Below, piece after piece: positions 3,133 to 58,673 of a stretch of 64,000 bases of DNA (positions are counted from its first letter, which is position 1; each line of letters opens with the position of its first letter). The notes beneath the pieces are model-generated. The model was not told where the DNA came from, made no database searches, and saw nothing but the letters and a program-made list of their open reading frames with translations. The stretch comes from a virus (lineage: Duplodnaviria > Caudoviricetes): positions 330 to 64,329 of the IMG/VR virus record IMGVR_UViG_3300044712_000496, one strand, 5' to 3'. The position numbers and the translations under genes are program-made.

Positions 3133-6100
3133 ATGAAATGGACATTCAATGCGGTTTTGTGGGGTGTGATCCTTCTCTGTTCCGGTATATCCTACGGGAT
3201 GGACTTCAATTTTGTGGGTAGCGGCAACGGGGGTGGATCCTCGTCGCTTCAGTCTTATACGGTGGCGACTCTGCCAACAGGTGTGGTTGGCAGAATGGTG
3301 TACGTCACTGACGGAGCGAGTTCGTCCGATTGTAGTGTGGGTCTTGGGACCACTCTAGTTCCTTGTATTTTTAACGGTGCTGCTTATGTCTCCATCGGCG
3401 TAGCGGGGGCATCCACTGTTTCGGATGCGGCATACGACGCTACCGGGTGGAACGGCGACACTACAAACTCGCCGAGCAAGAATGCCATCCGGGATAAGCT
3501 AGAGGCTCTGAATACTGCCTTGCTCGCATCCTCGCTTCAAAACTCCCTTTTCAATGCGCACACGGTCTTGGCTGCGACAACCGACGATACCCCGGCGGCT
3601 TTAACCGTTGGGGAGCAAACAGTAGTCGGCAGGGCGACAGGCGGGAATATTGCAGCCCTTTCTATTGATTCGGACCTCTCTTCAGTTTCGGCCAACGATG
3701 ATACTGTACCAAGCGCAAAAGCGGTAAAAGCCGTGACAGATACACTTGTCACAAAGGCTTTATATGACGCTAACACCATTCTCTACGCAACCACTGACAA
3801 CACCCCTGCCGCACTGACTGTTGCGGAGGACAAACTGGTGGGTCGGGCAACGGGTGGCAATATCGCGGGCATAGGGCTCGGAACGGGTCTTTCTATCACT
3901 GGCGGCAACCTGACTATTGGTACTCTCAATCAGAATACCTCCGGCAACGCGGCAACGGCAACGGCTCTTGCGGCGGACCCCGCAGGATGCACGAACCAAT
4001 TCACCAGGGATATCAACGCTTCCGGCACGGCCACCTGCGCCAGTGTAGCGGCGGCTGACATCACGACCAACACTATTACTGCAACTCAACTCGCAGCGGC
4101 ACTTACTTTCGCCGACGGTGATTTTCTCGACCTCTCCGCCATTACCATGAGCGGAACCAATGACGAGGGGATTGCGATACCTTATTGGGCGAACACCACT
4201 CCTACGAACGGGGCGACCAAACGCTTCCTCACCTGGGACGAGAGTTCTGGGGTCATCAAGATTTACACTGCATCGGGGTGGGTGACAATCAACCCGAGTT
4301 CCGGGGCGCCGACCGATGCGCCCTATCTTGTTGTAGGTTCCTTGAGTGCCTCTCTAAGCGGGGAGCGTCTCATGACCGAGGGACTGGCCATTGACTTCAC
4401 AGACGCGGGGGCGAACGGCAACTTCACCATAGCCTTCGATCCCACCGAGCTGACTGGTGACAGGACTTGGGCGGCTGGCGGAGCGGCCACTACCACCTGG
4501 ACATGGGACGTTTCCACTGGGGCAGATCCTACTCTCGCATTTGGTAACGGGTTGATCTCCACCAATTCCTCGTTCACGGTAGCGACAGGGAAGAACATCA
4601 CGGTAGGGACTACCCAGTGGAACAGCGGGGACTCAATAGATGGGACCAAGGTAGCGAACGCCGATCTCGGCGCGGTGTCTGTCTCCAGCGGTGTATGGTC
4701 TCTGGACAATGGGACCGTGGCTGCGGCTAAACTGGCTGATGCCGACTTCGGGCCTTTTACCGTGGCCTCCGGGGTAGTAACCATAGATGCCGACTCCATC
4801 AACGACACCCATATAGACTGGGGGACCGGGGCGAATCAGGTCAGCATGGATGACATCCCGAATGGCTCCAGTTTCGAGAAGGTTGCTGCTGCGGATGTGG
4901 ACAGCAACGGCCATGTGAATGTCTTCCAGGACTCGGACGGAACCGGGTCGATCTCTGTGACCGGGCTCACGGCGGCTAGGGCAAAAACCGTTAGGGACGC
5001 AGCGGATACTCTCCTCGAACTTGGTGGGTCTTATACCCCGACTGGCACTTGGAACTGGACAAGTGCAACTGTCACATGGCCGACAAGCCTCAATGCCCTG
5101 AATAGCACAACCTCGGCTGCGAACATGCTCCCCTACTACACCGGGAGCGGCACGGCTTCCACCACTTCTCTGACTGCTTTCGGACGTTCCTTGATTGACG
5201 ACGCGGACGCTTCAACTGCGAGAACCACCCTCGGGCTCGCCATAGGCACGGACGTACAGGCTTACAACGCCGCGCTCGCTTCCATCGCGGGGCTTACTGA
5301 GACAGCCGGGGGAACCCCGTACTTCACAGCATCGAATACATGGGCTGTCCTTGCTGCGGGATCCGCAGGGCAGATTTCGAGGTTCGGCGCTTCCACCGCC
5401 CCCACATGGTCAACCTTCACTATCCCCGATACCATCGCCCTCGGTTCCGTGTTCGCGGCAAACAGCCTCAACACCCTCACGGCGATCACTTCCACTAGTG
5501 GCACCAAGTTCCTCCAGAATGCGGACGGCGTGATCTCATGGCAGACCGGCGTTGGTACTATTGGGGGTTCTACAGGTTCAACAGACAACGCCCTGCTCAC
5601 AGCGAATGGCACAGGTGGAAGCACCCTACAAGCGAACAGTTCTACATCTACCCTCTCCGATGCAGGGCTTTTGACTGTCCCGACCCTTTCTTCCGGGGCT
5701 GGTGGCTTTACGGTTGACGCCGATGGGGATGTGGTTGCGAAATCCATAACTATCAGCAAGGTAAGCGGCTTAGCCGGCATCCTTAGTCTCTATGAGGCGA
5801 ACTCCACCGATATGGACTATTCCGGCAGGATCGGCCCGAGTTCTATAACCGCCAACACCTCCTACCTCTTGCGGGATCCGAATGCAAGGGCGACTTCCGG
5901 TAACATGGTGCTTGCCTATACCAACAGCGGGGAGTCCGGTTCCGGCACTCCTGCGGATCCTTACATTCAGGTGGGGTCGTGGGCAGATCTCGATGACTAT
6001 GTGGCAAAAGCCGGGGCTACTATGACCGGCAAACTCACAGCCGTCAATTCTGGAACTTCTTCTGGCTTGAACGTAGGTTATTGGGCATCTCCTCCAGCTT

Positions 6101-42508: not shown

Positions 42509-43369
42509 TTAGAGTACCTCCATGTAAGATTTTATGAACTCCGCCGCGAGCGGCGGGACGATGGCATTTCCGTAGGCGCGTATTTGGCCCACTCTTCCGG
42601 GAACCCCATCAACCAGCGGCACAATTCCGAGGCCAATACGCCGCGCTTTTCCGTCTGCACAGGGGATGAAGACGGAGTTTGACCAGCACCCCAGACCGTT
42701 CTCCCCAACAACCCGTTCACCGAGACATTCGGACAATGCTCCCCATCCTTCCAGTCCCTTGTTGTTGTTGGCCATCCCGCTAAACAGGCTTGGTCCTCCA
42801 ACTTGTGTTGATGGGCTACATTTTTCTCTGTTGTACAAGCTCCGCCGCTCGGAAGTTTCGGAGACATCCATCCCCCCAACCCAATACAATCTTTGCCTGA
42901 TGTGCGGCGCCCCGATGCCCGCTGCGCACAAATCTGCGGCCCCGACTCCATATCCCAGTGCTTCCAGGTCAGAACGTACTCCGGCGAGCCATACTCGCCC
43001 ATCCTTTGACGCAACTTGTTCTCCAAAGACAACTGGAGGTCCGCACTCTTCGATAAGCCTTCTGAACTCGGGCCACAGATGCCGCTCGTCGCTGGTTCCT
43101 TTTCTCTTCCCGGCAACACTGAAGGGCTGACAGGGACAGCTTCCTGTCCACACAGGGGCATCGCAGGGCCACCCGGCAAGTTGTAGAGCAAGATCCCATC
43201 CTGCAATACCCACAAAGAAATGGCATCTAACGTATCCTGTAAGGTCATTCGGTCGTACCTCCTGAATGGGCCGGGGGTCCACATCGCCATCCATTATCAG
43301 ACCTGCGGCGATAAGGTTCTTCAACCACTGAACCGCATAGGGTTCGATCTCGTTGTAGTAGGCTTTCAT
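42509..43369 (-). CDS. DNA cytosine-C5 methyltransferase, alpha polypeptide (M.EcoHK31I-like)
   Basis: AYYNEI, HFFVGIAG, GSCPCQPFS, FGEQV, HIRQRLY and YGNAIVP motifs. Confidence 0.9.
   Translation of the reverse strand: MKAYYNEIEPYAVQWLKNLIAAGLIMDGDVDPRPIQEVRPNDLTGYVRCHFFVGIAGWDLALQLAGWPCDAPVWTGSCPCQPFSVAGKRKGTSDERHLWPEFRRLIEECGPPVVFGEQVASKDGRVWLAGVRSDLEALGYGVGAADLCAAGIGAPHIRQRLYWVGGMDVSETSERRSLYNREKCSPSTQVGGPSLFSGMANNNKGLEGWGALSECLGERVVGENGLGCWSNSVFIPCADGKARRIGLGIVPLVDGVPGRVGQIRAYGNAIVPPLAAEFIKSYMEVL
42532..43290 (-). CDS. Overlapping beta polypeptide of the C5 methyltransferase (true start probably internal)
   Basis: Alternative frame containing TSGICG, LENKLRQR, WPTT and CRWLMGFPEEW (motif IX). 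Confidence 0.7.
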   Translation of the reverse strand: MAMWTPGPFRRYDRMTLQDTLDAISLWVLQDGILLYNLPGGPAMPLCGQEAVPVSPSVLPGREKEPATSGICGPSSEGLSKSADLQLSLENKLRQRMGEYGSPEYVLTWKHWDMESGPQICAQRASGRRTSGKDCIGLGGWMSPKLPSGGACTTEKNVAHQHKLEDQACLAGWPTTTRDWKDGEHCPNVSVNGLLGRTVWGAGQTPSSSPVQTEKRGVLASELCRWLMGFPEEWAKYAPTEMPSSRRSRRSS

Positions 43370-46179
43370 TTCCTTCTCCTACCCCTTCGCTCGACTTCTT
43401 CCAGTTTCACTTCTTCAGTTGCGAGTTTCTTGACAATCCGCATGGTGTTCTGCAATGCCGGGTGGCTGATGTCGATGATCCATACGGCGACCTGGGTGTG
43501 AGCCCACTGGGTACGGGAGCCGAGGACTTTGCGCCCGTCGTGGTCGAGGAGGATCTTCCAGTCTTGGAGTTCCTTTTTGAAGTCGGTGTACCCTGCGCTC
43601 TGTTTCTGGAGCCAGCGGCGGAAGATCGTCCGGTTGATGAAGAGCTTGTTGTTGTCCAGCTCTATCCTGTACTCCAGCGGGGCTCTCGGTTCCCGAGCAA
43701 TGGAGAACATCTGCTTCTCACACTCATTGCCGGTGAGGATCAACCCCCCCGCTTGCCGCTCGTCAAGGAACTGGCCGATGATGTCGAAGGAGCTGGTCTT
43801 GTGTTCCTCTATCTCCCCGAGGTTCTCCTTGATAAGCCCGATGCTCCACTCCCAGATGCGCTTGACATCAAACTGGATAAGCCCGAGTTTCTTTGCTACC
43901 AAACCACCGTAAATGGCAACGGCGCACATGGCGAGCCAGAACCTATGTTCCCCCCTTGCCCCCGACCTAACTTTGAGGTCATGGATGATCTTGTCGAGGT
44001 CCTGAGTTATCCGGTCCTGGTTCTTCGCCAGCCATTCACAGTAGATCGGCCCTGCGGTTCCATAGTTCTTGTAAAAAATCCTGCGGACTTGCGTGGCCAC
44101 GGAGAGGAACTTAGGGTTCCCGACTACCCGGACTTCGAGGACTCTGTTCATTTCTGCCGTGGGGTTGATTTTGAATGCCGAGAGTTTGTCCATGAGAGAG
44201 TGATTCGATGATGCTACCGCTACGAGGTTCCACTGGTTGAGACCTTCCTTCTCCGCTCCTTTCTGGGTCAGTCTTGCCTTGTCCCGCCCCTGCGTGACCC
44301 GGTACAGCAGGTTGGATAGCTCGTCGGGCATGATGTTGGAGATCTCGTCGATGTAGGCGGGGAATGAGTTGTATATCCCGAGGCGGCTGACTATGGCGTT
44401 GCGGGTGTCGTCGTTCTGGAGCTTCAGCTTGTCCGGGTCTCCGTAGACGGAACACATCCACTCGCCGGTAAGGGTCTTGCCTACCCCGGAACGACCAATC
44501 ATGGCGACCATACCCCCGGCGAAGCCTGTGAATCTCAAGAGGGGGGAGCCAAACCCGCCGGCCAGGAAACTGAAGGCGATGTCCTCGATGCCGGGGAAGT
44601 CGAACACCCTGGTTATCGCAGACCACTCCTCGACGTTCCCTTGAGACGCAAATGACCGGGCGACTGTCGGCACATTCGCTGAGAACCCGACTTCTACCGG
44701 GTCTCCTTCAGGCTGGTGGACCGTGGAGCCAAGGACTATGCTATCCCCCTGCCATCCCATCTGCGTTGCGAGTATCGTGATGTCCCGCTTCTTCCGCAGG
44801 TCTTTCATATAGCTTTCAATATATGTAGTCATGTCGTTTCGGGCCTCCGTACCGATGCAGTGAACATGATTGTCGAGAAGTGCCGTGTGGAAGGCTTTGG
44901 GGTCGCGGACCAGGGACGAACGTATCTGGAACTCCTCATACTCTTTGTTGAACGGTAGTTTGTGCTGAATGGTCAGCATTTCCTGTTTTGATCCCAGATC
45001 CTTGGACACCGCCGTAATGAAGAGGTCGGAATCGTAGAAGGGGTTCGGGTCAACCTGTCCGTCCGAGACCCTGTGGAGCCCCGTGGCGAGCCTCTTGAAT
45101 CCCTCTGGGCAGTAATTATGGTCTTCCTTTTCCACTACAACAGGCTCGGATATCGGGCGACCGAGGGAAATGGGGCTCTTTACCTTCCCCTGCCAACGGC
45201 AACCGATACACCCCATCGGGTTGTCCATCCCGAATCTCTGGCATGTGGTCGGTCCCGCCCCCGAGTCTATGTGATGCTGGATCTTGTCGGTTGTTTGACC
45301 AGGGGAGTAATCTGGATGGCCGCTCGACCATTCATGTATTATTTGAAACTCACCCTCTAAGGCTTCCTGTGTAAACCGGGCGACACCTATGAAATCGTAC
45401 CACAGAGGCTCGGAAACATACCCCCCGCTGTCCCTTACCTGCCTGATCTGGGCGCAGCGTTCTACGAGTTGAGTCAGGTAAGATACCGGTGTTTCATTTA
45501 TACCCGAAACAAATTCATCGGGAACGCCCTGGTACTCGCTCGGGGGGGTAAGGGACTTGGTTGGGAGCTTCTTCTTATCCAGTGCGGATTTGAGCTGCGT
45601 GGAGAACTCGGCGAACGATATGGCGGGGCGGTCGATCAGGAGACGGACGGGCTTCTCGTTGCCGTTCTTGCGGTTCGTAGTCCCCACCGGGCGAAGTACC
45701 GAGGAACAGTCGGCAGTTCGGGATGGATCGGCTTTGAAATTGTATGCTTCACAGAGGGTCTTTAACTGCTTCGCAACGGTTCTCCAGACCTCCGCCGGGA
45801 GATCCTGACTGATGCACCAATGGGCATAGAGGCCATTCCCGGAAGAGACAACTGAAGGGAAAGAGAAGCCGGTCTCATCGCAGAACCTCTTCAATTCCTG
45901 AATTGCTATGCCCTGAGAGGCGAAGGGCTTACCCTCGCCGCAGTCGATGTCGAGGAAGAAGTTGCGCAGGAACAGGGCGTTTTCGTGCTTACGGTTCTCT
46001 TTGGTCCTGAACGATGCCTGGGCGTAGTACATCGTATGCCCTTGGGCGTCCATGTACTCGAAATAGTTCTTCAGGTCGGTCAGAGAATCGTGGAATCTAT
46101 GTTCAAACCCGCCGGATGGGAGCAAGCGGCCACAACAATATGAGCCGCCGGACGGGAGAATCTTTTGTAAAAAATCCAT
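43366..46179 (-). CDS. Primase-helicase (primase domain + Cys cluster + DUF927 helicase)
   Basis: FLDID, SGNGLYAHW, VLRPVGTTN; GPTTC...CIGC; Walker A GRSGVGKT; IDE. Confidence 0.85.
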   Translation of the reverse strand: MDFLQKILPSGGSYCCGRLLPSGGFEHRFHDSLTDLKNYFEYMDAQGHTMYYAQASFRTKENRKHENALFLRNFFLDIDCGEGKPFASQGIAIQELKRFCDETGFSFPSVVSSGNGLYAHWCISQDLPAEVWRTVAKQLKTLCEAYNFKADPSRTADCSSVLRPVGTTNRKNGNEKPVRLLIDRPAISFAEFSTQLKSALDKKKLPTKSLTPPSEYQGVPDEFVSGINETPVSYLTQLVERCAQIRQVRDSGGYVSEPLWYDFIGVARFTQEALEGEFQIIHEWSSGHPDYSPGQTTDKIQHHIDSGAGPTTCQRFGMDNPMGCIGCRWQGKVKSPISLGRPISEPVVVEKEDHNYCPEGFKRLATGLHRVSDGQVDPNPFYDSDLFITAVSKDLGSKQEMLTIQHKLPFNKEYEEFQIRSSLVRDPKAFHTALLDNHVHCIGTEARNDMTTYIESYMKDLRKKRDITILATQMGWQGDSIVLGSTVHQPEGDPVEVGFSANVPTVARSFASQGNVEEWSAITRVFDFPGIEDIAFSFLAGGFGSPLLRFTGFAGGMVAMIGRSGVGKTLTGEWMCSVYGDPDKLKLQNDDTRNAIVSRLGIYNSFPAYIDEISNIMPDELSNLLYRVTQGRDKARLTQKGAEKEGLNQWNLVAVASSNHSLMDKLSAFKINPTAEMNRVLEVRVVGNPKFLSVATQVRRIFYKNYGTAGPIYCEWLAKNQDRITQDLDKIIHDLKVRSGARGEHRFWLAMCAVAIYGGLVAKKLGLIQFDVKRIWEWSIGLIKENLGEIEEHKTSSFDIIGQFLDERQAGGLILTGNECEKQMFSIAREPRAPLEYRIELDNNKLFINRTIFRRWLQKQSAGYTDFKKELQDWKILLDHDGRKVLGSRTQWAHTQVAVWIIDISHPALQNTMRIVKKLATEEVKLEEVERRGRRRK

Positions 46180-49292: not shown

Positions 49293-50840
49293 TTATTCCC
49301 CCCGTTTTATCATGTCCAGAATAATATCCTGAAGTCTGGTTTTTTCCTGTAACGCCTTGTAAATCCTCCGTTCTGTCGGGGTTGCGGAGATCATGGCGAT
49401 GTCGATTTTTGCTTTCTGCCCCCCACCGTCGATCCGGGCGTTTGCCTGGACGAACAGCTCGTTCTTGTTACACGGGGCATACCATATTATAAGCGAGGCT
49501 GCGGTTAATTCAAGTCCGTGTGCCATCGTGCCGGGGTGGGCGAGGAGAACATGCGGTTTGGCGGACATCTGGAAATCCTGGAATATGGCGTTCCTATGGT
49601 TCGCAGACGTGCGCCCGTCCACGATGGCGACTGACCATTTCTTTTTCAGCTCTTTGGCCAGGGCGTCGAGAACCCCGGTGAACGGGACGAATACCAGAAC
49701 CTTCTCCTGGTTCTCCTCGATCAGCTCCTCCAGAACCCGCAGCCGGGGACCGAAATCCAACTTAACCACGCATCCGAACGAGTCATAGACGCAGCCGCAA
49801 GCGGCCTGGGTGACTTTGGATATCATCACGGCGGCATTGACCGCAGTTACCACGGACCCGTCTATCTCGGTCTGGGCCTTTCGGATGATCTCATTGACGG
49901 CCTTCTTCTGGCCCTCGGTCAACTCAGCATTACGCTCTATGATCGTAGGCTCCATGTCAGTCACGACATCTCGGGTGAACCTTATGGCCGGCGAGAGGAG
50001 TCTCTTCACCCACTCCTCGGCCCCGCGCCGGGGAGCCCATTTGAAAGGGCCGAGCTGCATCATGGTCTCGGATTTGAACCGGGTGAACGTGCCTTTGAAG
50101 TTCTCGGGTTTGACGATCTTCATTTGCCGGTAGGAGTCTGTCGGTTCTTGCGGCGTTGGCGTCCCTGTCAAAGCCCAACAAGCCCGCTCGGGAGTAACCA
50201 CTGCCTTCATTGCCTTGTACCGATTGGTGTTGTTCCTGAATACTGCACTCTCGTCGATTATTACCAGATTGATGTCCGTCCGCTGGTTGATCTCATCAAC
50301 AAGGATCTCTATGCCATCGTGATTAATGATATAGAAGTCATTGGGTTCCGCTAATAACCTACGCCGCCTTTCGGCTGTGCCGTAGAGAACCGCGAACCGG
50401 CGATGGGGGAAGTGAAAGAATAGATGATCCCCCCACACCCTCTCCAGGGTGGACAACGGGGCAACTACCAAAACCTTATGAGCGACGCCCTTCTGTATGA
50501 GATAATCAGCGGCCCAAAGGGTCGAGAGGGTCTTCCTGGTCCTCATTGTTGAAAGATTAAAGGCCCGAGGGTAGAGGGTCAGGAACTCGGCGGTGTCGAT
50601 CTGCCACCAGCCGGGAGTCATTCCTGCGCGGATGGGCCAGTTGTATTCTGTTCTAATAGGCGACGGGGCATCTATGTCCATATTCCGCAGCACCCTCGCC
50701 GCTTCGAGACTCTGCTGCACGGCAACATAGACCTTACCCCCGACCTGGACGCTCTTTGCCATCGGCAGCACGGACTGGATCTGTGCGTAGTTCTGAGGGA
50801 CAAAAATCAGATGGTCTTTAGCAACCGTGCAAGGAATCAT
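49293..50840 (-). CDS. SNF2-family helicase
   Basis: MRTRKT (Walker A variant), IIDES, LTGTP, HGLELTAA and QANARI. Confidence 0.88.
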   Translation of the reverse strand: MIPCTVAKDHLIFVPQNYAQIQSVLPMAKSVQVGGKVYVAVQQSLEAARVLRNMDIDAPSPIRTEYNWPIRAGMTPGWWQIDTAEFLTLYPRAFNLSTMRTRKTLSTLWAADYLIQKGVAHKVLVVAPLSTLERVWGDHLFFHFPHRRFAVLYGTAERRRRLLAEPNDFYIINHDGIEILVDEINQRTDINLVIIDESAVFRNNTNRYKAMKAVVTPERACWALTGTPTPQEPTDSYRQMKIVKPENFKGTFTRFKSETMMQLGPFKWAPRRGAEEWVKRLLSPAIRFTRDVVTDMEPTIIERNAELTEGQKKAVNEIIRKAQTEIDGSVVTAVNAAVMISKVTQAACGCVYDSFGCVVKLDFGPRLRVLEELIEENQEKVLVFVPFTGVLDALAKELKKKWSVAIVDGRTSANHRNAIFQDFQMSAKPHVLLAHPGTMAHGLELTAASLIIWYAPCNKNELFVQANARIDGGGQKAKIDIAMISATPTERRIYKALQEKTRLQDIILDMIKRGE

Positions 50841-53225: not shown

Positions 53226-54203
53226 TTACCCCCTCCCGCAATGCGGGCATTCCCGGTTCCCACAATACTGCCGGCAGAGTCCGTTGGTCTGTTTCCTGAA
53301 GCTCTCGTTGTTCCATGCCTGTTGCATCTGGTTGACAGTGGAGAGGAACCCGGCCCATTTCTCCTGGAGCTGTTCCCGGTTGAGCGGGGCTGGAAGCCCC
53401 AAGACTTTGTTGTACTTGAGGAAGATCAGTTTCCCATCGAAAGTCTCGATCTCAGGTTCTAGCCATGAGGCGAAGATCAGCATGAGTTCAATCTGGGCAA
53501 CGTCGTCTTTAATCTTCCCTGTCTTCCAATCATAGACCACGACTTTTTTCTTATGGCGTTGAAAAACCAGGACATCACCCTTGCCCCGGACCCAGACAGT
53601 GTTCCAGTCTTTCCACCCGCAGGGTTTAAGATCCTCGGTGAAGCACATTTCCCTTTCAACCATGAGTTCAGCCCCGGAGTTTTTCGCATTGAGAAGGGCG
53701 TTCAGATATGGCTCGCTCCCGCTCTCGTCGATGATCTTCTTGTCACCACTCGACAACTTCGCCCCTTTGAGGGCTTTCTCGTTCGCTTCGTGGACGCTCT
53801 GACCCCACCGTTGCTGTTCGGTCTCGGCTTCCTTGATGGTCTTGTAGAAACGCTTCGCTGCCCACATCGCGGGGCAGGTAATGAACTCCTGCATTGACGT
53901 ATAGGACCATGTGAATCGGGGGCGTTGAACGGCAACGGGGGTTGCCGCTTCTTTGGTTTCGCCCCACGGAGGACGGTTGTAGATCTTCGTCGCCTGGAAC
54001 TGATCCATGACCGGAACGGGAACCTTGCCTATGATGTTCGACGCAGCCTGGACGTCCTTCTGCCATGCGAGCCATAAGTCCCTTTGAATGACATTCTTCC
54101 GGTCGGGTCCACCCCACAGATTACCCACAAGATCCACGACCGGAAGCGTAGACGCCCCGATCTCCTCGAACTTCAGTTGATGCAGGAAAACAAAATGTGC
54201 CAT
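53226..54203 (-). CDS. PD-(D/E)XK (Cas4-like) exonuclease
   Basis: WSYTS...CP...GD...YDWKTGK...LCRQYC...CPHC. Confidence 0.8.
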   Translation of the reverse strand: MAHFVFLHQLKFEEIGASTLPVVDLVGNLWGGPDRKNVIQRDLWLAWQKDVQAASNIIGKVPVPVMDQFQATKIYNRPPWGETKEAATPVAVQRPRFTWSYTSMQEFITCPAMWAAKRFYKTIKEAETEQQRWGQSVHEANEKALKGAKLSSGDKKIIDESGSEPYLNALLNAKNSGAELMVEREMCFTEDLKPCGWKDWNTVWVRGKGDVLVFQRHKKKVVVYDWKTGKIKDDVAQIELMLIFASWLEPEIETFDGKLIFLKYNKVLGLPAPLNREQLQEKWAGFLSTVNQMQQAWNNESFRKQTNGLCRQYCGNRECPHCGRG

Positions 54204-54920: not shown

Positions 54921-55078
54921 TCCTCCACCCCTCCCCTCAATGCCCGTTTGTACGCCTCAATCCGCAGCTTCTCCACGTCAACTTGTTCGGTTTTAATTGA
55001 GAGAGGAGCGACATAAAAAACCGCAAGAGCGACCCCACAGAGGATGACCGAAGCCAGGAACAGCTTGACGCCTCTCAT
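54917..55078 (-). CDS. Small membrane protein
   Basis: N-terminal TM; ATGA overlap with the polymerase stop. Confidence 0.45.
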   Translation of the reverse strand: MRGVKLFLASVILCGVALAVFYVAPLSIKTEQVDVEKLRIEAYKRALRGGVEE

Positions 55079-56457
55079 TTCACATAGCTCCTTCCCCATC
55101 CACCTTCACTCGCCAAAGGCAAGTCCGGCGCCCAGGACGGCGGGGTACTCATTATCTCGCCCATCCGGTGATATGTCCGCTCGGCGTCGCTTTCTTTTGC
55201 GGCAACCAAAATTTCATCATGAACCGTCAGGACGACCTTCATCCCTTCGTCACGCATTCTCAACATAGCGTCGGTCATTATGATGCGGGACAAAGCCTGG
55301 TCACAGTTTTCATCGACCTTCCCGCCGTATAGCTTCTCCCGCTCGCCCTTCTTCCTGTTCTTCAGTATCGAATACTCGGTCCTTCGCCCTCTTGTCTCCC
55401 CTTGCAGCTCGACATAGCGAATTATCATGCCGTTGGGGAGGAGAATACCCTCCGGGACTGTTCGCAGGACGTTCTTGGGGCCGATGGGCTTGCGCTCACC
55501 CTTGAGAATCCAGCCGAGGGCATCCTGGCACTCGTCCCAGAACGCGGGGACCGCAGGGTTGTTGTCTCGGAAGAGCTGAATTATCTTCTGGGCGCAAGCA
55601 CAGTGCAGGGAGTGGGTGTTTATGTCCATCCCTGGTGGGAGGGTCGCGTTGATGTATGCGGCGTTCCTGAACTCAAAGGCTCGCTGGTCAACTCCGAGGG
55701 GGGCGGCGATAGCGTCTCCGAGGATGCGTCCCTTGTCACCAAGCATCCCGACTCTCAACATGCTTTGGTATTTCTTCCACCCGAGCCCATAGCCGCAGTT
55801 ATGAACGAGGATATACCCATCGTCGGAAACCAAGGTGAAGCGGTGGTCCGGGCCGGTATTCAACAGATCGAAGGTCGGAAGTTTTTCGTGGAAGATCGTG
55901 GGCCTATAGGCCACCGACGATATTTTAACGGTCGAATGTGCCGCTCTCCAAAACAGATGGTCGTTAGCTATTTTTTCCCAAGGAAACCAGCCATAGGGGG
56001 TTGCAATCTCATGGTCAGGGGTAGCTGTGACCCCACCCTTCTCAATTACGTCCTTCCGCCCCTTGCGGATCAATCCTTCATGGGACACCCAGTTGTTGCC
56101 ATCCCAGACCTTGTGCTTGGCGGTGATGTTGCACAACTTAACAACCCCTGTGTCAGTGAGAACTCTGTTGTCTCCGGTCAAACAACCGAGAACCACAGTT
56201 TTCCCGAGGAACCGTTCGTTCTTTTCTTTTTTTGTGATCTCCGCCCCGGTCATGGTTTTATACATCTCGCAGTAAAGATCCTTGCCTTCCCGGTATGCCT
56301 GGACCTTATCCTCCTGGCCAGCGAGCCAGAAGTTCACCCGCGCCTCAATAGCTGACAGATCTCGAACAACAATCACATGACCCTCGGGAGCCTGGAGCGC
56401 ACGACGCAGGGGGGAGACTCCGGTTCCGGCGCATTTTTCACAGGGGCATTCAGACAT
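55075..56457 (-). CDS. DNA polymerase A, C-terminal (palm/fingers) part, intein-containing
   Basis: Motif A DLSAIEAR, motif B RFLGKTVVLG/CGYG, motif C TVHDE. Confidence 0.9.
   Translation of the reverse strand: MSECPCEKCAGTGVSPLRRALQAPEGHVIVVRDLSAIEARVNFWLAGQEDKVQAYREGKDLYCEMYKTMTGAEITKKEKNERFLGKTVVLGCLTGDNRVLTDTGVVKLCNITAKHKVWDGNNWVSHEGLIRKGRKDVIEKGGVTATPDHEIATPYGWFPWEKIANDHLFWRAAHSTVKISSVAYRPTIFHEKLPTFDLLNTGPDHRFTLVSDDGYILVHNCGYGLGWKKYQSMLRVGMLGDKGRILGDAIAAPLGVDQRAFEFRNAAYINATLPPGMDINTHSLHCACAQKIIQLFRDNNPAVPAFWDECQDALGWILKGERKPIGPKNVLRTVPEGILLPNGMIIRYVELQGETRGRRTEYSILKNRKKGEREKLYGGKVDENCDQALSRIIMTDAMLRMRDEGMKVVLTVHDEILVAAKESDAERTYHRMGEIMSTPPSWAPDLPLASEGGWGRSYVK
55798..56184 (-). mobile_element. 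Mini-intein (129 aa) in PolA motif B
   Basis: G|CLTGDNRVLT...ATPDHEI...FDL...ILVHN|CGYG; no endonuclease domain. Confidence 0.9.
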
Positions 56458-57550
56458 TTATTTTCCCACTCCCATCGCAGATCGTACAACTTCTGCTTAG
56501 ATTTTGAAGGTTTATGCGGTCCATCCCACCATACCGTCCGGTATGTGCCTTGTAGTAGCCTAAAGGAACCGGCAGGTTGCCCCGAGAAGCAATACCCAGA
56601 AGCCGTTGGGTCCGGGTCTCTTTGATGGTGCTTTTCACACCCAGGCGGGCCTCGACAAGAGCCCTTATCTCCTCGTCCTCGCTATCCAGGAGAGCTTTGA
56701 ACTCCTCGTCAGATTTCGAGAATGCGTAGGCCCATCCTTCCTTGCTCTGCTCCGCAGAGAGCAACCCGACCGGCGGCTCGCCCATTGTCTCGCTGCTGAT
56801 CTCCCCGCGCTTCACTTTCGCCATTGATAGTTTTTTGGGCGGGTCAATACCAAAACCCAGTAAAAGAGACGCAAACTTAGGATTGGAGGACAGCAACTCC
56901 TTATCCGCTGAGACTCTTGCGAGTAGATCTTCTTTTCTTTTTAACTCGTCTTGGTGGGCCCCTTTAAGAATCTCGGAATTGAGTTCCAGGATCGGCTCGG
57001 TGAACATGCGAATGGTCAGATCAATGAGTTTCAGTTCGGAAGGGGGGAAATGACCGCGAAGAAGATTAAAGACATTCCAAGTATCAGTACAGTCATATCC
57101 GCAATAAGTAGCGCAATCTCGGTATAATTCCGGGGGTAGCGTTTCGAATCCTTTGGTAGCCGTGACATTGAACCCTCGTCCTTTCTCCGGGAGACCCAGA
57201 ACGCGCAGGATGTTTGAAAGAGAGGCGGATTCCGCCGGATAGATCGCCCTGAACATGGACATGGTATCAAACCAGAACCCAGGATGAACGCCGTAGTGGT
57301 ACGAAAGAATAAAGCCATCGAAAGCAGCGTTCTGTGCGATTACCCCGGTCTCCGCCCAATTTATCTTCGAGAAGACCGCTTCGATTTGACGTGCGGGGAC
57401 AACGACGGGCTTCCCTCCCCCGACTTTAAGCCCGACCATGTGGGCGTGGAACCTGGGGTCTCGGACGTATGCCTCGTTCGTCATCTTCGAGAGGGTGTAG
57501 TCCGCCGCCCAGTAGGTCTCGAAATCCAATGTAAGGAGGTTTTTTATCAT
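56450..57550 (-). CDS. DNA polymerase A, N-terminal (3'-5' exonuclease/thumb) part
   Basis: LDFET (ExoI), QNAAFD (ExoII), YCGYD (ExoIII), HTGRYGG...NLQNL. Confidence 0.9.
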   Translation of the reverse strand: MIKNLLTLDFETYWAADYTLSKMTNEAYVRDPRFHAHMVGLKVGGGKPVVVPARQIEAVFSKINWAETGVIAQNAAFDGFILSYHYGVHPGFWFDTMSMFRAIYPAESASLSNILRVLGLPEKGRGFNVTATKGFETLPPELYRDCATYCGYDCTDTWNVFNLLRGHFPPSELKLIDLTIRMFTEPILELNSEILKGAHQDELKRKEDLLARVSADKELLSSNPKFASLLLGFGIDPPKKLSMAKVKRGEISSETMGEPPVGLLSAEQSKEGWAYAFSKSDEEFKALLDSEDEEIRALVEARLGVKSTIKETRTQRLLGIASRGNLPVPLGYYKAHTGRYGGMDRINLQNLSRSCTICDGSGKINV

Positions 57551-58373: not shown

Positions 58374-58673
58374 TTATCCTAGATACGAACGAAGAGCTTG
58401 CAAAATCAAATCCCGGAGCGAAACGCCCTGGTCAACGGCCCTGTGCTTCGCGGCGGTCCAGAGATCATCGGGGATGTCACGGAGCAGATAACTCCCGGCG
58501 GAGGATGTTTCACGGAACAACTTCCGGGCGATCTGCATGGCATTTACTGGCTTCCCAGCTGCGCGGAGTTGCTCGATTTCTGACTGCACATCCGCCGAGC
58601 AGGGACGGCAGAGCATTGTCCCGCCGATGCCGATGCTTGGATTTGGTTTGCCACATGCGTCGCAAGTTTTCAT
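58374..58673 (-). CDS. Zn-finger + ribbon-helix-helix regulator
   Basis: CDAC...CRPC; YLLRDIPDDLWTAAKHRAVDQGVSLRDLILQAL. Confidence 0.75.
   Translation of the reverse strand: MKTCDACGKPNPSIGIGGTMLCRPCSADVQSEIEQLRAAGKPVNAMQIARKLFRETSSAGSYLLRDIPDDLWTAAKHRAVDQGVSLRDLILQALRSYLG

Follow-up and report, generated by a model that had tools for sequence, protein, structure and literature searches.

A split intein has two parts with splicing blocks, an N-intein of about 100 amino acids (aa) and a C-intein of about 35 aa, and rebuilds the protein of a split gene by trans-splicing. Phage family A DNA polymerases (PolAs) can also be encoded by split genes: in T7-like cyanophages such as S-SBP1, the gene is divided between the exonuclease and the polymerase, and this is described as the first split in PolAs (Czernecki et al. 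2023, PMC10201439). Another group, the marine phages of the HMO-2011 type, which includes Puniceispirillum phage HMO-2011 with its gp12 and the RCA phages CRP-1 to CRP-3, has as one of its defining traits a polymerase whose 'partial DnaJ central domain' contains two CXXCXGXG motifs (PMC6918029, PMC9038755). Finally, Zn(Cys)4 sites formed between molecules are known from the zinc hook of Rad50 and from the zinc clasp of CD4/CD8alpha and Lck (PMC5093744, PMC9569753, PMC12198760). We report here on a stretch of 64,000 nucleotides (nt) of a tailed soil phage (positions 330 to 64,329 of IMG/VR record IMGVR_UViG_3300044712_000496), hereafter the window, in which the gene of a family A DNA polymerase is split exactly between two CxxCxGxG half-sites. 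Split polymerases, zinc-knuckle inserts and intermolecular Zn(Cys)4 sites are thus each known, and a split passing through a putative metal site, with its ligands halved, appears to be new: among the main texts of freely accessible journals, our literature search retrieved no polymerase split with metal half-sites at the cut. In the available texts, the words 'zinc', 'cystein' and 'intein' do not occur in PMC10201439, nor does 'split' in PMC6918029 and PMC9038755.

Like the S-SBP1 enzyme, the window polymerase is a phage family A polymerase encoded by two adjacent genes and predicted to reassemble into a normal fold. However, whereas the S-SBP1 cut separates the exonuclease and polymerase domains, that of the window interrupts the polymerase domain itself, after the NxQN motif and before motif A, and a CxxC pair is found on both new termini. 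The likeness to the Rad50 hook and the Lck clasp is that two Cys per chain would complete one tetrahedral site, the Lck clasp being, in addition, a heterodimer; yet those sites join separate proteins or coiled coils, whereas the putative site of the window would join the cut ends of one fold, for which single-chain counterparts exist. As with split inteins, a functional protein would be obtained from a split gene, and four relatives of the same clade (P0007, P0015, P0023 and P0055) have N-intein-like tails of about 100 aa at a point a few residues upstream of this junction. A split intein at the window junction was nevertheless rejected, since the extra residues number only 12 at the end of the N-half and 13 at the start of the C-half, and the insert of fused forms has 17; this is too short for an intein, and covalent ligation is not expected.

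Both halves are encoded on the minus strand (Table 1). The N-half matches the PHROG family phrog_17, 'DNA polymerase' (E 9.2e-24), and is 57% identical to its relative P0002; a Pfam scan at E up to 0.1 gave no family, and on the exonuclease side DFETYW and FDGFIL are visible, PF01612 being present in the precomputed annotations of relatives. The C-half also matches phrog_17, and PF00476 (DNA_pol_A) with 52 bits for a cut-off of 34.3. The catalytic motifs A, B and C are all found in the window, as DLSAIEAR, as ERFLGKTVVLG and CGYGLG on the two sides of an intein, and as TVHDE (motif C, VHDE), and C-half residues R82, K86, H413 and D414 are further invariant positions of alignment A4. At its C-terminus the N-half reads NLQNLSRS-CTICDGSG-KINV (NLQNLSRSCTICDGSGKINV, then a stop; in a longer stretch GGMDRINLQNLSRSCTICDGSGKINV, then a stop), and at its N-terminus the C-half reads MSECP-CEKCAGTG-VSPLRRAL (MSECPCEKCAGTGVSPLRRAL; longer stretch MSECPCEKCAGTGVSPLRRALQAPEGHVIVVRDLSAIEAR). 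An extra Cys at C-half residue 4 is not conserved.

The initial annotation of this DNA had placed the two half-sites within 56419-56488, and translation confirms that these limits bracket CTICDGSG and CEKCAGTG exactly. The overlap of the two genes and the purine-rich site upstream, which it had also reported, are present as well: the N-half stop codon and the C-half ATG both fall within the 8 shared nt ATGTCTGA, a Shine-Dalgarno-like GGGAG is found 11 nt 5' of this ATG, and a second GGGA 6 nt 5' of it. Such a layout suits a translational coupling of the two halves. In the record itself, the C-half is called from an internal GTG (P0126, 433 aa). Relatives, however, conserve the 27 residues that precede this GTG, and P0121 and P0122 are 73% identical to the C-half over its N-terminal 95 residues; the real start is therefore the ATG at 56457. 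Late starts at an internal GTG or ATG, 17-27 residues downstream, are recurrent in gene calls of this family (P0126, window 56377-56457, minus strand; P0146; P0148; P0150) and make the second half-site disappear, and the database label of most N-halves is 'hypothetical protein'. Annotation is therefore affected on both sides of the cut.

Is the Cys segment an insertion, as the initial annotation supposed? Among 44 IMG/VR loci with polymerases 36-40% identical to that of the window, 43 have a single frame of about 620-660 aa that runs through NLQNLPRNGxIRxAL to motif A without any Cys, the 44th ending at a contig edge, and we conclude that it is. With the N-half as query, 5.8 billion proteins were searched; of 8000 scored, 4565 matched at E up to 1e-10, and the best 120 of these were used. 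The 15 nearest non-self matches are 44-57% identical to the window N-half, and 13 of them, about 360-415 aa in length, terminate right behind the first Cys pair, with CxxCxGxGK(I/L) or Cx4CxGGK followed by the end of the protein (for example NPQNLNKFCPACSGEGKI, NLQNLTRSCTNEGCDGGKIDDNA and NAQNLTKSCGRCEGTGEMV, each before a stop); one of the 13, P0013, terminates inside the Cys motif. The other two, P0007 and P0015, have an intein-like tail of about 100 residues that begins a few residues upstream.

The reciprocal search, for which the query was the N-terminal 95 residues of the C-half, gave 78 matches among 171 candidates. Seven C-halves begin with M, 0-5 residues and CxxCxGTG(V/I)S (P0121, P0122, P0124, P0133, P0135, P0143 and P0145), and the C-half starts at loci L045 and L126 also fit M, 0-5 residues, CxxCxGTG. 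P0146, P0148 and P0150 are called from an internal Met, and in locus L126, the DNA of P0148, MKCDRCDGTG is encoded upstream of this Met. Four pairs of halves (P0003/P0121, P0006/P0122, P0013/P0124 and P0014/P0133) agree in the length of their longest contig, and are probably located on the same contigs. The same search revealed 13 uncut polymerases of about 630-750 aa with the complete Cys4 insert. In eight of these (P0125, P0127-P0132, P0142) the two knuckles are separated by 0-2 residues, as in NPQNLNKF-CPACSGEG-CPKCGGTG-VSALRRAI, and in the remaining five (P0123, P0134, P0136, P0138, P0139) Cx4CxGGK is followed by a linker of 5 to about 32 residues and by CxxCxGTG. Five closer outgroup forms devoid of Cys read NPQNLNRGSKLRESIEAPPGHVIVVRDLS (P0137, P0140, P0141, P0144, P0147).

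Split genes with paired Cys motifs are therefore recurrent, and they coexist with continuous forms that bear the same insert. The two Cys are kept in 16/16 related N-tails and CxxCxGTG in 10/10 related C-heads, and none of the four Cys is lost in the insert-bearing relatives examined, which comprise 16 N-tails, 10 C-heads and 13 fused forms; such a pattern is far beyond what chance would produce. An additional survey of 145 new cluster representatives, sorted into classes by regular expressions, comprised 83 plain fused forms, one N-only form with Cys (P0210) and 61 others (33 'other', 27 'N-only other' and one fused form with a single Cys), the latter being mostly fused forms missed by the expressions, inteins and truncations. 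No new split lineage was found among these representatives, because clustering at 50% collapses the clade. P0210 (392 aa, at a contig end) has a fused variant junction, NPQNLQRSCTKHDERDESCADCWKGTLRAAL, with three Cys in another spacing, and the insert may thus have further forms. As for cultured phages, a tblastn search with the N-half retrieved only 12 phage records, at 26-34% identity, and the fused P0127 as a query retrieved 394, the best at about 30% identity; the insert was seen in none of the records of either search, the junctions themselves not having been inspected.

The two ORFs (open reading frames) of the window might also be a single gene, expressed by a programmed +1 frameshift or interrupted by a 1-nt assembly error, as the initial annotation had envisaged. 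The frames do overlap by 8 nt, and one A fewer in the A run of AAAATAAATG (within 56440-56475, minus strand) would fuse them. We nevertheless hold this explanation to be very improbable. Over 56200-56700, the window shows no difference from a Logan contig (63,166 nt, depth 42.9) of X1, the only public run in which this DNA was found; X1 is a rhizosphere metagenome and possibly the source of the window itself. No RNA dataset with the window DNA is listed. The C-half is provided with a separate ATG and a purine-rich ribosome-binding stretch, the same split is present in data from several sources, and the overlap of the frames, which a shift site would involve, is absent from L045, L046 and L126. 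In L045 and L046, the N-half (1479-3596 in L045), which contains a large intein, ends with CPNPQCEGGVLK and a stop at 3596, and the C-half starts with MSELCPKCQGTG at about 4001; in L126, the N-half ends with CGRCNGEKEVPDENV and a stop at 3546, and the C-half starts at 4007. The halves are thus some 400-460 nt apart, with two small ORFs between them. These differing layouts and the intervening ORFs rule out frameshifting and misassembly as a general origin of the split, and together with the identical second assembly they led us to reject both for the window, so that the gene is truly split between its half-sites and the halves are separate polypeptides.

The small intervening ORFs of L045 and L126 are arranged so that stops and starts overlap in a chain, the first ORF of each pair being Cys-rich. 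They are not alike between the two loci, and no Pfam family was found for them, apart from one sub-threshold match at chance level.

How split and fused forms are related was examined with a maximum-likelihood tree of 34 rows, built on 299 columns from motif A onward with the insert columns excluded (P0022, missed by the motif pattern, and P0126 and P0148, duplicates of the window and of L126, are omitted). The rows with an insert, 25 in number, group together as a single clade (95/95) that lies within forms lacking it. Within this clade, split and fused forms are interleaved, and at least three changes of state are required. For instance, the fused P0127-P0129 are sister to the split P0121 and P0122 (95/90), and the window joins this group. 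Forcing the 12 split rows, a group chosen after inspection of the tree, into one clade costs 32.3 log-likelihood units and is rejected by the approximately unbiased (AU) test (p-AU 0.0205). Split and fused states have thus been exchanged several times at exactly one spot, which argues for a functional near-equivalence of the two. The existence of 13 uncut relatives with the four Cys further suggests that the Cys4 module most likely predates the gene split, and was not built for reassembly.

The similarity with the HMO-2011 type deserves comment. In both cases, an internal insert with two CxxCxGxG motifs is found in a family A polymerase of a phage. On translation, HMO-2011 gp12 (L204, 8284-10326) has CATCNGTG and, after a spacer of 17 residues, CPACHGDG; this pair precedes NMQN by about 130 residues. 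It lies between the exonuclease and polymerase parts of an uncut protein, whereas the insert of the window clade directly follows NxQN. Moreover, gp12 gives a sub-threshold match to PF00684 (29 bits, cut-off 32.7), whereas the insert of the window clade gives none. Since the site and the behaviour towards PF00684 differ, and since HMO-2011 is not among the best 60 of the 394 phage records matched by P0127, we consider the two inserts to be analogous and reject the idea that they are the same insertion. No split variant was found among close HMO-2011 relatives of IMG/VR (74-91% identical), all 80 loci being in one stretch, with one cut by the end of its contig. The gp12 pair is then an independent insertion in another phage PolA lineage, and points to a convergent gain of zinc knuckles.

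The term 'DnaJ-type repeat' used in the initial annotation holds for the eight-residue motif and not for the domain. CxxCxGxG repeats are present in the window, but there are only two of them, divided between two proteins, and neither half matches PF00684 at E up to 0.1. We therefore dropped the assignment to the DnaJ central domain.

The Pol I fold was compared on the fused relative P0123, whose AlphaFold2 model, from an alignment of 69 rows, has a mean pLDDT (predicted local distance difference test) of 91.7 and a pTM (predicted template modelling score) of 0.86. Foldseek matched it to Aquifex Pol I, phage G20c Pol I and the Klenow fragment (E 6e-21 to 1e-18), and the insert region (residues ~341-380) is modelled with short strands, with pLDDT values of 86, 86, 92 and 92 in successive blocks of 10 residues. 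The complex of the window N-half, the intein-containing C-half and one Zn was modelled with an ipSAE interface score of 0.85, compared with 0.07 for the best control; the mark used is reached by 58 of 80 solved complexes and by 2 of 110 mismatched pairs, and is approximate here, owing to the user-supplied alignments and the ligand. Contact agreement between runs was at least 75%, and partner pLDDT at least 64. The confident interface includes both Cys tails (N-half 351-358 and 360-366; C-half 2-6, 8-9 and 11-24), and the cut ends are accordingly expected, on this model, to meet in the assembled enzyme. Because halves of a known fold can pass by resemblance to solved Pol I structures, the model is to be taken as showing likeness, not binding, and it bears on the meeting of the cut ends rather than on a metal between them. 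The initial annotation had proposed that zinc staples the two polypeptides together. In the model, the interface extends far beyond the tails, so that zinc would probably be a clasp at the cut ends rather than the sole staple.

We favour, with a probability of about 0.65, the interpretation that the window encodes a naturally split, two-subunit family A polymerase, in which a pre-existing pair of Cys4 knuckles is completed in trans at the cut ends. The following scenario may be proposed. The clade would have gained an insert of about 17 residues, with two CxxCxGxG knuckles, in the loop between NxQN and motif A. The four Cys of this insert would, in uncut relatives, coordinate a single metal, most likely zinc. 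A cut in the short linker between the knuckles would then have arisen in the window and several related lineages, leaving an N-subunit (putative exonuclease and thumb) that ends with two Cys and a C-subunit (palm and fingers) that begins with two; by sequence, the window, the 16 N-tails and the 10 C-heads all offer two Cys per chain as candidate ligands. After coupled translation, the extensive native interface would bring the two subunits back into the polymerase fold, the metal site would be completed in trans by the terminal Cys pairs and serve as a clasp, and the C-subunit would excise its motif B mini-intein to become active.

Several points weigh against this interpretation. Metal binding, the choice of zinc and a stabilising role of the clasp are inferred from the Cys motifs; PF00684 matched none of four fused relatives (P0123, P0125, P0127, P0136) at E up to 10, and the spacing Cx2Cx4Cx2C is, by its sequence, tight for one tetrahedral site. 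In the complex model, confident contacts outside the tails are numerous (160-166), such that the halves may bind equally well without the Cys, and the score covers the protein chains, the zinc being unscored and its ligands unreported. The fused forms imply that the module has a function other than reassembly, and in the S-SBP1 type of split PolA the new termini are simply solvent-exposed (PMC10201439). The tree resolves changes of state, not splits as opposed to re-fusions, and its AU test bears on a group defined post hoc. The read check, finally, is a second assembly, at contig level, of the same reads, possibly those of the source run.

The main alternative is a neutral split in a permissive surface loop. 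The Cys4 module would then serve some other purpose, such as local stability or touching the primer-template duplex near NxQN, while the native interface holds the halves and the metal adds little. The 13 fused forms with the same module, which imply that it predates the split or is independent of it, speak for such a split, as do the large modelled interface outside the tails, the T7-like exonuclease/polymerase split, which needs no clasp (PMC10201439), and the inter-knuckle linkers of 5 to about 32 residues in five fused forms, which show that the spot tolerates insertions. However, all splits seen in the clade fall between the knuckles, with none elsewhere in the polymerase body without an intein, and the four Cys are invariant in split forms. 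We therefore find a neutral split rather unlikely; it would in any case still imply a metal site in trans, and differs from the clasp only in the weight given to that site.

The nature of the ligand should also be considered. The metal is not nameable from sequence alone, and Cys4 sites of other polymerase families hold iron-sulphur (Fe-S) clusters. The four Cys of the window could instead be ligands of iron or of an Fe-S cluster, or be paired in disulfides, and the junction would then be redox-sensitive. Against this, there are four Cys only, in a knuckle spacing, and the CxxCxGxG motifs are zinc ligands in DnaJ, as cited by PMC9038755; we regard iron or disulfides as improbable.

If the metal site does form in trans, nature would have found a non-covalent counterpart to split inteins, within a clade of polymerases that employs inteins as well. 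Toggling between split and fused forms at a putative metal site is unexpected, and the natural matched versions provide a ready comparison for the contribution of a zinc clasp, with controls that make testing direct. A pair of tags of 12-13 residues for metal-dependent protein reassembly would, if true, be of interest to protein engineers. A bolder proposal is that a portable metal clasp renders the gene tolerant to cuts, and that assembly of the replicative polymerase is gated by zinc or thiol redox state, which would switch phage DNA replication. This would explain both the repeated toggling at one spot and the small foreign ORFs between halves, and we view it as doubtful.

The C-half of the window contains, between the G and the C of motif B, an insert that we read as a class 1 mini-intein and that the initial annotation had overlooked. 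It starts with CLTGDNRV, contains TATPDHEI (block B, TPDHE) and ends with YILVHN followed by Cys, whereas the relatives P0121, P0122, P0133, P0143 and P0145 have an uninterrupted LGCGYGLGW at this site; P0124 and P0135 have other inteins at the same motif B site. Profile matches are weak (TIGR01445 intein_Nterm, E 0.0069, 17.4 bits for a cut-off of 24.5; RecA mini-inteins of the PDB, E 0.09 to 0.2), and the Pfam scan of the C-half gave no intein family. By its sequence, the polymerase is then interrupted twice, by the gene split and by the intein, and an active enzyme would need protein splicing plus subunit assembly. The family as a whole is rich in inteins at several sites: after YYGAH (the large intein of L045), before NxQN, in motif A (QIE followed by a Cys) and in motif B. 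Cases were noted in P0007, P0015, P0023, P0055, P0204, P0313, P0316 and P0341, and among the cluster representatives, for example, in P0276, P0307, P0326 and P0328. Several N-only proteins stop about 100 residues into an intein, and resemble the N-pieces of split inteins. If they are true split inteins, the same clade would employ both trans-splicing and Cys half-sites.

Table 1. Coordinates of the split polymerase, its junction and associated features (window positions, except for the last two lines, which use positions of the loci named)
Feature	Position	Strand	Description	Basis
N-half of split family A DNA polymerase	56450-57550	minus	366 aa; putative 3'-5' exonuclease, thumb and NLQN, then first Cys half-site and 4-residue tail	ORF
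C-half of split polymerase	55075-56457	minus	460 aa with intein; second Cys half-site, motif A, motif B (intein-interrupted), motif C	ORF
First half-site CTICDGSG	56465-56488	minus	N-half residues 355-362	translation
Second half-site CEKCAGTG	56419-56442	minus	C-half residues 6-13	translation
8-nt overlap ATGTCTGA	56450-56457	minus	N-half stop and C-half ATG; C-half in +1 frame	sequence, three-frame view
GGGAG, Shine-Dalgarno-like	56469-56473	minus	11 nt 5' of C-half ATG	sequence
NLQN motif	56501-56512	minus	N-half residues 347-350; insert starts 4 residues later	N347, Q349, N350 invariant in alignment A3
Motif A DLSAIEAR	56338-56361	minus	C-half residues 33-40	D33, I37, E38, R40 invariant in alignment A4
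Mini-intein (putative), 129 aa	55798-56184	minus	between G and C of motif B, LG/CGYGLGW (O-helix region)	translation
Exonuclease (phrog_69)	53226-54203	minus	replication module, downstream of polymerase	
Helicase	49293-50840	minus	replication module	
Primase/helicase	43366-46179	minus	replication module	
DNA methyltransferase	42509-43369	minus	replication module	
Two small ORFs between L045 halves	3593-3775 and 3810-4001		gap of ~400 nt	
Two small ORFs between L126 halves	3500-3781 and 3778-4017		gap of ~460 nt	

The window represents nearly the whole of a virus record of 64,329 bp, which has direct terminal repeats and an estimated completeness of 100%. A six-frame search of this genome found no second PF00476 match and no PF00136 match, two sub-cut-off PF00476 pieces (27.4 and 25.5 bits) both lying within the C-half, and the split enzyme is therefore the sole recognisable DNA polymerase of the genome. 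It belongs to a replication module encoded on the minus strand (Table 1). The exonuclease of this module has a Cys-rich C-terminal tail, ending in CRQYCGNRECPHCGRG, which may be another metal site. Upstream of the module, an ORF of 99 aa (58374-58673, minus strand) begins with MKTCDACGKP and continues to LCRPCSADV, so that its head, with two CxxC pairs, is zinc-ribbon-like.

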